Notes under the pieces: model-generated
Seen by the model: the letters and a program-made list of their open reading frames with translations, nothing else
Database searches by the model: none
What the model was told of the DNA's origin: nothing
Shown here: one piece after another, positions 41,556-44,948 of the stretch
How the letters are laid out: every line of letters begins with the position of its first letter
Numbering within the stretch: the stretch's first letter is position 1
Made by a program: the position numbers and the translations under genes
Origin: Candidatus Latescibacterota bacterium
GTDB lineage: Bacteria > Krumholzibacteriota > Krumholzibacteriia > WVZY01 > JAKEHA01
Assembly (NCBI GenBank): GCA_963707635.1
Contig: OY970173.1
Span: forward strand, 2,528,001 to 2,592,000
DNA: 64,000 nt
Reading direction: 5' to 3'

Positions 41556-44500
41556 CTACTGGATATTGTAGCGTTTGATCTTCGAAAGAAGATTGGGATA
41601 ACTGATGCCCAGGTGCACCGCCACCTGCGACTTGTTCCCCGAGTGGCGCCGCATCGCCTCCAGGATCATGGCCTGCTCGATCTGCTCGATGCGCTCGCGC
41701 AGCGTGGCCTCGCGCTCACTGGCGGTCTCCGCCTCGGCCTCGGCTCCACGCAGCACCTCCGGCGCCAGGTGGCGCACATCGAGCGACTCCCCGTCGTCGG
41801 CCAGGATGATCGCCCGCTTGATGACCTTCTCCAGCTCGCGCACGTTGCCCGGCCAGTGGTACTCGCGCAGCCTTGCCATGAACTCGGGCGTCGCGCTGTC
41901 GATCGACTTCTCCATTTCGCGGGCGATCTTGCCCAGATAGTGCTGCACCAGCAGCGGGATGTCTTCGGGCCGCTCGCGCAGCGGAGGCACGGTCAGCGGA
42001 AAATCATTGATGCGGTAGAAGAAGTCCTCGAGGAATTTCCCTTCGTCGACGAGCTTCAGCAGGTTCGCTTTCGACGCGCAGATCACGCGGACGTCGACGC
42101 TCATCAGGTCGTTCGATCCAACCTTGCGCACTCTCCCGGAGTCGAGGAACTGGAGCAGCTTGCCCTGCATCCCCATCGATGTCTTGCCGATCTCGTCCAG
42201 GAACACGGTCCCGCCGTTGGCTTCGATCAGCAGTCCGTCCTTGTCGAAATAGGCGTTGGTGAACGCACCGCGGACGTGGCCGAACAGCTCCGATTCCAGC
42301 AACTGTTCCGGCAACGCCGCGCAGTTGACGTGCACGAACGACTTATCCCGACGCTCCGAAAGCAGATGGACCGCGTAGGCAATGAGCCCCTTGCCGGTCC
42401 CGGTTTCGCCCTGCAGCAGCACGGTGGCGTCGGAGTGCGCCACCCGTTCCGCGAGGTTCAGCAGGTGAATCATCTCGCGGTTGTCGGTGACGATCGATTC
42501 AAAACCCTTGCCGGCGCCCGGGCGCGGGCGCGCCGCGCGGCCCTTCTGCTCCGACCGCAAGAGCTCGTAGACGGAAAGGGAAATGAGTCTCGAGTACGCG
42601 CCCACGAAATGGAGGTCTTCCTGGCCGAAGGGCGAGCGCGACGAATCGCCTTCCTTGAGGACGCACAACAGGCCCAGCGCCTCCTGGTCGAACCCGAGGT
42701 CCTGGAGCAACAGCGTCCCGTGGGGCGATGCGAGGCGTTCGCGCAGCTCCGCGAGCGACGGTTCGTGCTCCATGTCGGTCACGACGACGGGGCCGCGGCT
42801 TCCGGTGGAGTGCTTCTTATACCACGCTTCGAGCGCCTGGGCTTCGCGGGCGCCGATCCCCTCTCGCGCCATCGTCTGCAGCCCGCGGCCGCCGGGCGAC
42901 GGAATCGCGACGAAACCGCAGCTCGCGCCGAGCTTCTCCATGATGAGACGCAGCGTCGAGTCGAGCCCCTTGGCCAACTGCTCGCGCGATCGCGCCCCGC
43001 TCTGGATCTCGCCCAGGACGGAGAATTGGTCGAGCACCCGGCGCGTCGCGTTGGACATGTGCGCTTCCAGCCGCCGCCGCAGCGCGGCCAGCGCCTTGCG
43101 CACCTTCGCGCACTCTTCTTCGGCGGCGAGACGGTCGGCTTCGTAGACCGCGAGCAACGCGTCGTCGAGGTTGCCGAGTCTCCGCTCCACGCCACACAAC
43201 AGCACGTGTGAAACGATCTGCGCGTGGGTCTCATCGAGTTTCCCGAGCGCGATCACACCCTCGCCCAGCACCACCTTCGCCTTGAGGAGCGCGGATTCCG
43301 ACCGGTTCCGTCCGCACAACCGCGCGAACAACTGCCCCGTCATCGCCTTCTCGTACGGGTTGCCGTATTCCTCGAACGCCGCCATTGCCGCTTCCATGGC
43401 ATCGATCGCGGCCGCGGAATCGCCGAGCCGCGAGAGGCACAACGCCCGGGCGCGGTGGAAGAACCCGACCTCGTAGAGCTCGCCGCAGGCGGTCGCGATG
43501 CGAAGTCCCTCCGTCACCGATTCGAGCGCCGTCTCGGGCGACCCGAGCCGGTATTTCACGTCCGCCAGCCGCCGCAGGCACTCGGCCACGACGTCGCCAT
43601 CGGGCGCGAGCCGGCGCCCCTTCACGAGCGCGGCGGTGAGATTGGCCGAAGCGCCGCGCAGGTCGTTGCGCGCCATCATGAGTTCCCCGAGATATTCGTC
43701 GGCGAGCGCGGACTCGCGCTCGTAACCCAGCTCGTCGGCCATGGCCTGGGCGCGGAGCAGCGCCTTTTCGCCGCGACCGAGCGCGCCCCGCGCGACCTGG
43801 GTGCGGCCCAGCATCAGGAGCGCCCGCGTGAGGCTGGCCTGGTCGCCGAAGCGTTCGGCGCCGGATGCGGCCGAGTCGAACGCGCTGATCGCGTCCTCGA
43901 AGCGCCGCAGTTTCGAATAGACCACGCCCAGGTTGAGCTGGACGACGATGCAGTGTTGCGACAGTCCCAGCGTGCGCGCCAGTTCGAGCGACTTGGACAA
44001 CGAGGCCAGCGCCCGCGACCAGCGGCAGGCGTTCTTGTGCAGCAGACCGAGACTGTTATAGACGTAGGCGATGCCCACGCGATCCTCGGCGCGGCGGTAC
44101 GAGGACAGCGAATCCATGAAGAACTCTTCCGCCTCGGCGGCGAGGCCGAGACGCTGATAGCAGTTCGCGATCAGGAGCTGGATGTAGGCGACTTCGGCGT
44201 GCGATTCGGTGCGCTTGAGCTTGCGGTACGCCCCAAACGCGGTCTTGAGCGCGGCGTCATAGGCTCCCTGCCACAGGAGCAGGTACCCTTCCCGGTATTC
44301 GATCCGGCCCAGCGCCTCGCCGGTGACCGCGCCCGGGTTCGCGCGGGCCTGGTCGAGCACTTCTCTGGCCGCGGCGAAGTCGCCGCGCTTGCGATGGCAG
44401 TCACTCACGCGCAAGAGCAGGCGGAACCGATCCGGATAAACCGGCAGCTCCGCCTGCTCAAGCGCGCCGCGAAAATATTCCAGTGCCGTCGAGAAATTCT

Positions 44501-44612
44501 CGGTCGCGAAGTGCATCTCGCCGACTTCCTCGCCTGGCGAAGTGGTCGACTCACGCGCCTGTTCGCGCCGTTCTTTCCCCAGCCACTCTCTCTCGTCCCG
44601 TGCGTCGGACAT
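41556..44612 (-). CDS. sigma54-dependent activator: N-terminal TPR array, GAF-like domain, AAA+, Fis-type HTH
   Basis: About 480 aa of TPR-like helices (AYVYNSLGLLHKN…, LNLGVVYSKL…); GETGTGK, NCAALPEQLLESELFGH, GAFTNA, FLDEI, WPGNVREL, GNKSQVAVHLGISY. Confidence 0.92.
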   Translation of the reverse strand: MSDARDEREWLGKERREQARESTTSPGEEVGEMHFATENFSTALEYFRGALEQAELPVYPDRFRLLLRVSDCHRKRGDFAAAREVLDQARANPGAVTGEALGRIEYREGYLLLWQGAYDAALKTAFGAYRKLKRTESHAEVAYIQLLIANCYQRLGLAAEAEEFFMDSLSSYRRAEDRVGIAYVYNSLGLLHKNACRWSRALASLSKSLELARTLGLSQHCIVVQLNLGVVYSKLRRFEDAISAFDSAASGAERFGDQASLTRALLMLGRTQVARGALGRGEKALLRAQAMADELGYERESALADEYLGELMMARNDLRGASANLTAALVKGRRLAPDGDVVAECLRRLADVKYRLGSPETALESVTEGLRIATACGELYEVGFFHRARALCLSRLGDSAAAIDAMEAAMAAFEEYGNPYEKAMTGQLFARLCGRNRSESALLKAKVVLGEGVIALGKLDETHAQIVSHVLLCGVERRLGNLDDALLAVYEADRLAAEEECAKVRKALAALRRRLEAHMSNATRRVLDQFSVLGEIQSGARSREQLAKGLDSTLRLIMEKLGASCGFVAIPSPGGRGLQTMAREGIGAREAQALEAWYKKHSTGSRGPVVVTDMEHEPSLAELRERLASPHGTLLLQDLGFDQEALGLLCVLKEGDSSRSPFGQEDLHFVGAYSRLISLSVYELLRSEQKGRAARPRPGAGKGFESIVTDNREMIHLLNLAERVAHSDATVLLQGETGTGKGLIAYAVHLLSERRDKSFVHVNCAALPEQLLESELFGHVRGAFTNAYFDKDGLLIEANGGTVFLDEIGKTSMGMQGKLLQFLDSGRVRKVGSNDLMSVDVRVICASKANLLKLVDEGKFLEDFFYRINDFPLTVPPLRERPEDIPLLVQHYLGKIAREMEKSIDSATPEFMARLREYHWPGNVRELEKVIKRAIILADDGESLDVRHLAPEVLRGAEAEAETASEREATLRERIEQIEQAMILEAMRRHSGNKSQVAVHLGISYPNLLSKIKRYNIQ

Positions 44613-44672
44613 CGATTCCCTCGAGCTAGTGGACTATCGTGTTTCAGCAACGGATCGCCGGGCAGAGGCCGC

Positions 44673-44948
44673 CTAGCGCATCCAGATCATGTACTTCCAC
44701 CACATCCCCACGAGGATCATCACGCGGTCGACACGCTGACCCGGTGCCAGACGTTCTTCGACCGTCACCTTGCCACTGCCGCCGCTGCCCATTCCGGACA
44801 ACCCGTCCGCGTCCCCTTGGTTGGAGCCGCCACCGCGGCCGGTGCCAACGGGCGTGGGAGCTGCATAACAGGAAGAGACATCCGGAAAGAGGGCGGAAGG
44901 CGACACGAGTGCCGCGATCATGAGGAGGACTATCGCCGCCCGTTTCAT
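44673..44948 (-). CDS. Small exported protein/peptide precursor (91 aa)
   Basis: AGGAAGGAG RBS; Sec-type signal MKRAAIVLLMIAALV…; Gly/Ser-rich core with GDADG; aromatic/hydrophobic tail; ends 60 bp before the bEBP. Confidence 0.7.
   Translation of the reverse strand: MKRAAIVLLMIAALVSPSALFPDVSSCYAAPTPVGTGRGGGSNQGDADGLSGMGSGGSGKVTVEERLAPGQRVDRVMILVGMWWKYMIWMR

Follow-up and report, generated by a model that had tools for sequence, protein, structure and literature searches.

On the minus strand of a 64,000-nucleotide (nt) stretch of the Candidatus Latescibacterota bacterium genome (GCA_963707635.1, contig OY970173.1, positions 2,528,001 to 2,592,000 of the forward strand), hereafter the window, the gene for a small, predicted Sec-exported protein of 91 amino acids (aa) stands directly before the gene for a sigma54 activator built on an N-terminal TPR superhelix, and a structured non-coding RNA is predicted behind both. 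We propose that this locus is a peptide-controlled sigma54 switch with RNA feedback, and we put the probability of this reading at about 0.5. The small protein, referred to here as the pro-peptide, and the activator are very probably a functionally coupled pair. The host genome is 3.2 Mb in size and 96% complete; the features of the two genes, in window coordinates, are as follows.

45015..45044, minus strand: sigma70-type promoter of the pro-peptide gene (motif; a like site in orthologous loci)
44673..44948, minus strand: pro-peptide gene, 91 aa, product predicted to be Sec-exported (open reading frame, ORF, and orthologues)
44862..44948, minus strand: predicted signal peptide, residues 1-29 (basic N-terminus, hydrophobic core and A-x-A-type site, by heuristic)
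44793..44816, minus strand: acidic core GDADGLSG, residues 45-52, candidate ligand (residue conservation)
44676..44726, minus strand: aromatic helix, probably at the membrane surface (hydropathy, orthologues)
41556..44612, minus strand: TPR-GAF-AAA+-HTH sigma54 activator, 1018 aa, without a receiver domain (ORF, Pfam, models)
43023..44549, minus strand: TPR superhelix, residues 22-530 (AlphaFold model)
42513..43031, minus strand: GAF domain, residues 528-700 (model, Foldseek)

Both ORFs had been proposed in an initial annotation of this DNA and are present, separated by a gap of 60 nt, and the sigma70-like promoter assigned there to the small ORF was located at 45044-45015 on the minus strand. 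The same annotation had held that, if the pair was genuine, a small signal-peptide ORF with a short conserved core should lie consistently beside homologous activators, and this is what was found. Sufficient upstream sequence was available for 99 of 104 distinct orthologues, and 96 of these 99 were preceded by an ORF of 91-120 aa with a signal-peptide profile, co-oriented and 15-119 nt upstream of the activator; 94 of the 96 contained the core. The three orthologues missed by the script comprised one with an intact small ORF on inspection, one with a frameshifted ORF retaining the core, and one without anything. At locus L052 the orthologous pro-peptide is frameshifted with its core kept, which reflects either real decay or a sequence error. 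When the same rule was applied to the whole genome, 98 of 1431 genes had some signal-peptide ORF upstream, and an ORF with the core was found at 1 of 1431, this activator only. The activator was matched in 58 of 61 genomes, its own included; a profile search matched 155/155 genomes of the phylum Ca. Krumholzibacteriota, to which this genome belongs by the names of its homologues, 150 of them with a best E ≤1e-90, the latter being our own count from the table; paralogues and further TPR proteins are among the matches of this profile.

The partnership extends to duplicated copies. Each member of a first set of paralogues had its own small ORF (11/11, one truncated by a contig end), and in a fresh set of 14 further paralogues it was present in all ten evaluable proteins, of 670-870 aa (seven by script and three by inspection, one of them truncated by a contig end); two were not evaluable, and two proteins of 1,520-1,550 aa had no fitting small ORF. 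In a quick tree of 47 proteins, which gave long-branch warnings, the paralogues branched deeply, in clades separate from the orthologues, and every clade had a type of core to itself. Homologues bore the names Ca. Krumholzibacteria, Latescibacterota and Eisenbacteria, the last being distant full-length ones, and the small ORF was found in 11/11 Eisenbacteria-type loci with upstream sequence, many of which are close kin and two of which (L205 and L206) are of a taxon not established. Several further variants were observed. A second class comprises TPR-sigma54 activators of about 1,480-1,550 aa, for which the rule used above gave no pro-peptide upstream (L186, at G000:C1:877876-882321 on the minus strand; L278; L283). 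One paralogue clade (L069, L279, L284) retains the pro-peptide, with a GDPGD core, and has an AAA+ domain without a GAFTGA-type loop, so that its members may act without sigma54. The paralogous activator L274 has an in-frame stop, again either real decay or a sequence error. No relative was found in viral contigs or plasmids, and an origin from a mobile element was rejected on this ground.

The conservation of the small protein is concentrated in a few residues. The initial annotation had recognised a Sec-type signal peptide and an acidic GDADG motif; a basic N-terminus and a hydrophobic core are present by heuristic only, all signal-peptide calls being made with our own heuristic, and an A-x-A-type cleavage site occurs in 90 of the 96 orthologous small ORFs (shuffles: mean 69.8, maximum 79). 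A G-D-x-D-type core is common to 94 of the 96 orthologues (shuffles: mean 5.0, maximum 13), with a pattern that was written after viewing the sequences. Across 52 aligned small proteins only M1, G45 and D46 are invariant and D48 is kept in at least 90%, and all eight core codons vary synonymously; judging from these sequences, the short core is kept by protein-level selection. In loci L063 and L064 the core starts exactly at the predicted signal-peptidase site. The aromatic tail MWWKYMIWMR noted initially corresponds to a helix that is kept in 94/96 orthologues, 52 of which have it behind the core and 42 ahead of it, and that is not transmembrane-like, the best 19-residue hydropathy being 0.64. 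The helix precedes the core in two families, L032-L036 and the f5-like loci, which implies that the modules of the precursor were swapped in order. A C-terminal transmembrane anchor was rejected for the 91-aa protein from the same hydropathy value and from the finding that only 5/96 orthologues reach 1.6, and identity as a lipoprotein was rejected with a lipobox in 2/96 orthologues. No Pfam or NCBIfam family matched more than one of 52 members, and an Atlas search with the small protein gave only leads below 0.9, to hypothetical Eisenbacteria proteins of 109-112 aa. A sigma70-type site lies within 200 nt upstream of the small ORF in 88/95 orthologous loci (shuffles: mean 2.6, maximum 8); at the present locus the transcript of the small gene is predicted to begin near 45008. 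Contigs of relatives from four RNA libraries cover the small ORF and reach 44976-44994 in all four, and contigs from three of these four runs start at 41251, 41256 and 41259, near the expected start of the non-coding RNA; these contigs are a weak hint, as they carry no strand, have no DNA control and come from one year and habitat.

The activator was originally described as about 480 aa of TPR-like repeats followed by GAF-like, AAA+ and HTH regions with no receiver domain, and this architecture was borne out. Pfam gave TPR matches, Sigma54_activat (PF00158) at residues 707-873 with an E of 1e-59, an AAA lid and HTH_8 at residues 975-1015. The AlphaFold model of residues 22-530 is one continuous superhelix, with 25 helices over residues 26-529 and a predicted local distance difference test score (pLDDT) of 93. 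The GAF region has no Pfam match; its fold, over residues 528-700 (pLDDT 85), is nevertheless that of a GAF domain, and its Foldseek matches are GAF domains, those of NifA and Nlh2 among them. The GAFTNA loop is at residue 782, accompanied by Walker A/B, R-finger and sensor II motifs; the loop reads GAFTNA in 13 of 85 orthologues, GAFTGA in 30, GSFTGA in 41 and GSFTSA in 1. With these AAA+ motifs, a C-terminal HTH, an rpoN gene in its genome and a palindrome upstream of a -24/-12 promoter, the protein has the marks of a sigma54 enhancer-binding protein.

The TPR groove is conserved in a manner consistent with the binding of a peptide. In 43 sequences under 60% identity, a polar residue was kept in at least 70% at 13 of 54 groove-facing positions vs 1 of 72 outer TPR positions, facing being assigned on the model helices by TPR numbering. 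The conserved groove-facing residues are R107, R154, N186, N/S187, K193, N194, N227, K234, E306, E344, R347, R348 and R387; on the model, the Asn and Lys/Arg residues, with two Glu besides, suit an acidic peptide held by its backbone. In RRNPP receptors, a conserved Asn anchors the peptide by its backbone (PMC6458997). Among structures, the TPR fold matched Rap105-peptide (Z 25.7, root-mean-square deviation 3.5, 337 aligned), NprR-NprX (24.0) and AimR (22.4), with RapI within Z 22-26.

The output side of the locus comprises the following features; the 'target site' lies in the activator gene itself.

41496..41512, no strand: candidate palindromic enhancer TATWAA-N5-TTWATA, about 200 nt before P1 (motif counts)
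41283..41297, minus strand: sigma54 promoter P1 (exact consensus, kept position)
41003..41270, minus strand: structured non-coding RNA, uncatalogued, about 270 nt, predicted ends (folding, covariation, no Rfam family)
41251..41260, minus strand: invariant 5' loop of the RNA, complementary to activator mRNA (alignment, pairing)
41040..41058, minus strand: hairpin with the phylum-wide GGUGGGG loop (motif count, stem covariation)
44596..44605, minus strand: predicted RNA target site, activator mRNA +7 to +16, codons 3-6 (complementarity)
40743..40757, minus strand: sigma54 promoter P2 (exact consensus)

The two sigma54 promoters proposed downstream of the activator, P1 and P2, match TGGCAC-N5-TTGC exactly and are the only two sites in the window without a mismatch. 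A sigma54 site with at most one mismatch was found within 1 kb 3' of the activator in 57 of 63 loci vs 1 of 63 on the other strand, and the position of P1 is conserved across loci. Between the stop codon and P1, the palindrome TATWAA-N5-TTWATA, a motif first read by eye, occurs in 24/59 loci at one mismatch (shuffle mean 0.17) and in 41/59 at two (shuffle mean 2.4); it stands before P2 in at most one locus, and at ≤1 mismatch it is a single site in the 3.2-Mb genome. Of the two promoters first suggested as outputs, only P1 has the candidate enhancer before it; the control of P2 by this activator is less certain.

A conserved non-coding stretch begins at the expected start of P1 transcription and ends in a stem and a U-run. 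The RNA folds better than its shuffles (z = -5.3), and 12 of 40 consensus pairs show a compensatory change among 16 RNA sequences. A GGUGGGG-type motif is present in 57/59 loci (shuffles: mean 8.3) and lies in a hairpin loop in 35 of 57 cases vs 27 of 598 other G-runs; the stem of this G-loop covaries, with 17 double changes vs 8.4 shuffled in 19 sequences. The Eisenbacteria-type loci have a sigma54-like site in 15/15 by a loose pattern, followed 28-29 nt later by a G-loop hairpin in 14/15. It is highly probable that the RNA is the main target of the activator. No Rfam family matched at the gathering threshold, two sub-threshold chance matches fell outside the RNA, and none was found in ten related loci. 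Identity as 6S, Qrr or Pxr RNA was rejected on the lack of an Rfam match at the locus or its relatives, the 6S RNA of this genome lying elsewhere; a role as CsrA sponge was rejected, as no CsrA was found in this 96%-complete genome. That the G-motif has a coding function was likewise rejected, as no conserved ORF follows it. The RNA is present in one copy, and no paralogues were found in this genome. In the f1 and f2 families the RNAs have two G-motifs, in other families one, and a 15-bp hairpin at 41193-41226 on the minus strand, directly 3' of the second G-rich stretch, is kept in f1 and f2. By eye, five bases of the 5' loop (41251-41260) are pairable with the RNA's own G-loop (41046-41052, minus strand), which may allow a self-inhibited fold. 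Elsewhere in the genome, exact sigma54 consensus sites at G000:C1:3057564 (minus strand) and 538507 (plus strand) have no obvious start codon in the next 75 bases and might mark further sigma54-dependent RNAs.

The likely target of the RNA is the activator's own mRNA. In all 16 loci of the order to which this genome belongs, the invariant 5' loop and positions +7..+16 of the activator mRNA are complementary without a mismatch for 9-10 nt, and the codons GCA-CGG are fixed there; GCA accounts for only 6 of the 125 Ala codons in this gene. Matches of at least 10 nt were found at 18 of 60 own start regions vs 1, 2 and 0 of 60 control regions. A duplex z below -2 was obtained in 8/10 f1, 4/6 f2, 3/3 f8-like and 13/20 f5-like loci, the family labels of part of the loci being assigned by likeness; in the f5-like and f8-like loci the RNA sequence is another one and the pairing runs across the start codon. 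The G-loop is complementary to activator mRNA in 7 of 92 loci vs 0 in three control windows; the seven include 3/3 f6 loci, where the complement is at -19/-20. The Eisenbacteria type has a G-loop match in 8/9, which is weak because CCC makes up 58 of the 121 Pro codons there. At 1109 gene starts the G-loop complement was not enriched (8 vs 7.0), so no trans targets are indicated. Feedback of the RNA on the activator is, in this order, probable. The f3, f4 and f7 loci (L045, L046, L054, L056, L038, L040) have a conserved CTCGCC-N-GGG at about -25 to -10 of the activator start, for which no partner was identified in their RNAs.

From these results a mechanism may be proposed. The small protein would be exported and cut, and its acidic core would return to the cytoplasm via an Opp/Dpp-type importer, bind the TPR groove and gate the AAA+ domain; the activated protein and sigma54 would then transcribe the RNA from P1. 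By prediction, this RNA pairs with the beginning of the activator mRNA and would damp its translation. The gene order, conservation, co-duplication, promoter and enhancer motifs, RNA structure and complementarity are given by the sequence; export, processing, import, binding and the sign of the regulation we infer. The odds that the peptide is processed and re-imported are evenly balanced, and that it relieves a block exerted by the TPR and GAF regions has little better than even odds. The initial annotation had cautioned that the window contains no oligopeptide importer; the objection is partly answered by Opp/Dpp-type genes elsewhere in the genome, with six binding-protein matches, adjacent permeases and four ATPase matches over the cut-off. 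Since whole genera and families share a fixed core, the signal would be lineage-wide or confined to the periplasm of its producer, and not strain-specific.

Several observations weigh against the switch proposed here. In none of 95 orthologous loci does a sigma54 site stand before the peptide gene, so a direct auto-induction loop is absent; given also the sigma70-type sites and the genus-fixed cores, the data fit quorum sensing no better than a same-cell timer or an export checkpoint. The locus is core and chromosomal, with no diversity of the core within a genus, unlike pherotype systems, and the Opp/Dpp genes are common and unlinked to it. Precursors of 91-120 aa exceed the validated pro-peptides, which have 21-50 aa (PMC10075063), and the aromatic helix is unexplained. 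Folds outside RRNPP score as high as its receptors (LGN 26.4, APPBP2 26.2, APC/C and MalT 26.0), so that the fold indicates the type of peptide groove and not the family; the GAF domain is an alternative input. Pairing of the 5' RNA, at a duplex z below -2, was found in 0/21 loci of f3, f4, f6, f7 and the Eisenbacteria type, and no Hfq or CsrA was found in the 96%-complete genome. Finally, the loci are kin and not independent, and the motifs were defined after viewing the sequences.

The main rival dispenses with processing and re-import. Here the core of unexported precursor would occupy the TPR groove in the cytoplasm and Sec export would remove it, so that the activator would report secretion capacity or the state of the envelope. 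Such a checkpoint also accounts for the pairing and the groove conservation, avoids the outer-membrane problem, and fits a near-universal core locus (the 150 of 155 genomes above), a housekeeping-type promoter without sigma54 feedback and cores fixed within families. However, every paralogue retains a partner and a core of its own, something not obviously required of a general monitor of secretion, and in L063 and L064 the core stands at the predicted cleavage site, like a mature N-terminus; we consider this explanation unlikely, although it is the best of the alternatives. Less probable still is that the small protein is an exported accessory for another partner, kept beside the activator through a shared transcript, while the TPR or GAF region senses something else. 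The aromatic helix in 94/96 could hold the protein at the membrane, GAF is a real sensor fold and TPR grooves also bind protein partners, but the partner has stayed with the receptor over several deep duplications whose neighbours differ, and only a core of 4-8 residues is invariant. A cis-acting leader, in which ribosomes would stall at an export-sensitive motif of the small ORF and thereby determine activator translation, as with SecM and MifM and their downstream genes, is very improbable: the signal-peptide ORF is always directly upstream, co-oriented and close, and the aromatic helix precedes the core in 42/96, yet it follows the core in 52/96, at this locus about 180 nt separate the core from the start of the activator, and the conserved polar groove would be left unexplained.

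Known RRNPP(A) systems (Rap-Phr, NprR-NprX, PlcR-PapR, PrgX, Rgg-SHP, AimR-AimP) have an N-terminal HTH or three-helix effector ahead of the TPRs, whereas here the TPRs are N-terminal and the effector is a C-terminal GAF-AAA+-HTH unit acting on sigma54. The likeness lies in the adjoining genes, one for a pro-peptide with a Sec-type signal and one for a TPR protein of the cytoplasm, in the TPR superhelix and in a partner kept through duplications; the conserved groove-facing Asn residues (N186, N187, N194, N227) are candidates for the backbone contact made in RRNPP receptors. A published survey used the rule of a pro-peptide of 10-100 aa at -60 to 400 bp from a receptor of 250-500 aa (PMC10075063). 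With 91 aa and 60 nt the adjacency falls within this rule, orthologues reaching up to 120 aa, but the receptor of 1018 aa is outside it, the precursor exceeds the known ones in length, carries its acidic core internally and has an aromatic helix, and the locus belongs to the core chromosome of a diderm host, as opposed to Bacillota or their mobile elements. Sequence matches of the activator to Rap are weak (E 3e-8 to 9e-7) and come behind LGN and kinesin light chain, and the likeness found to RRNPP(A) is a generic TPR one. By size, effector and phylum, the locus is not a member of the RRNPP family.

Three other systems share part of its layout. Arbitrium of SPbeta phages (aimR-aimP-aimX) likewise joins a TPR receptor, a secreted pro-peptide and a downstream small non-coding RNA, AimP lowering aimX expression (PMC6458997); AimR, however, is a phage HTH-TPR factor, whereas the present locus is chromosomal, has sigma54 output and no viral relative was found. 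In Vibrio, the sigma54 activator LuxO drives the Qrr small RNAs, which repress translation of its own mRNA (PMC2632942), as is predicted here; LuxO is phosphorylated via membrane kinases and Qrr needs Hfq, while the present activator is without a receiver domain, no Hfq was found, and its RNA has one copy and no Rfam match. The placement of the RNA resembles Nla19-Pxr of Myxococcus, where a small RNA with a sigma54 promoter lies a few hundred bases 3' of a sigma54 activator gene (PMC5568312), but Nla19 is a response regulator, and the present RNA exceeds Pxr in length, matches no Rfam family and is accompanied by a pro-peptide gene. By analogy, the best reading is that two known kinds are joined, with RRNPP-like peptide input, sigma54 output and Qrr-like negative feedback. 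We did not find this combination described in full-text literature searches, which reached few subscription journals.

Behind P2 lies one further predicted gene.

39880..40725, minus strand: predicted lipoprotein, 281 aa, with fibronectin-III-like features (feature score 0.97)

Its start is about 17 nt past P2, and the next gene (the two spanning 38798-40725, minus strand) encodes a 361-aa signal-peptide protein without a Pfam match. A lipoprotein gene follows the activator in 46 of 57 loci, and a gene for an NtrC-type regulator lies upstream in 70 of 78. The lipoprotein is also found 3' of several Eisenbacteria-type loci and is missing from others that retain the RNA. At 34253-38549 and 47708-48766 (minus strand), proteins of PorV-like, FlgD-Ig and M6-peptidase type, the last with a Por secretion tail, suggest type IX-like secretion; this peptidase, 3 kb downstream, is by position a candidate maturase.

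In its most specific form, to which we give somewhat less than even odds, the proposal is of a system evolved in diderms, in which a trimmed acidic signal is re-imported, gates the sigma54 activator through its TPRs and yields a pulse of an Hfq-independent G-loop RNA that silences its own activator; within this form, and with similar reserve, the paralogous pairs may serve as several channels per genome. Reviews place intracellular peptide receptors in Gram-positive bacteria (PMC13220807), and a large RRNPP survey covered Firmicutes and viruses only (PMC10075063). The sequence supplies a candidate ligand, the residues of the groove, an enhancer, a promoter and, for the RNA, a seed and its target, so that the circuit could be rebuilt in E. 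coli although its hosts are uncultured. The main rival, a secretion checkpoint on sigma54, would also be undescribed. In that most specific form, if true, the system would be the first outside Bacillota to communicate through an intracellular peptide receptor, and it would gate a sigma54 activator in a new way. A circuit of peptide, TPR receptor, sigma54 and small RNA, kept throughout one diderm phylum and met again in another, would bring diderms into the range of peptide signalling; sigma54 activators would gain a new type of input, and there would be a new RNA family for which a target is predicted.

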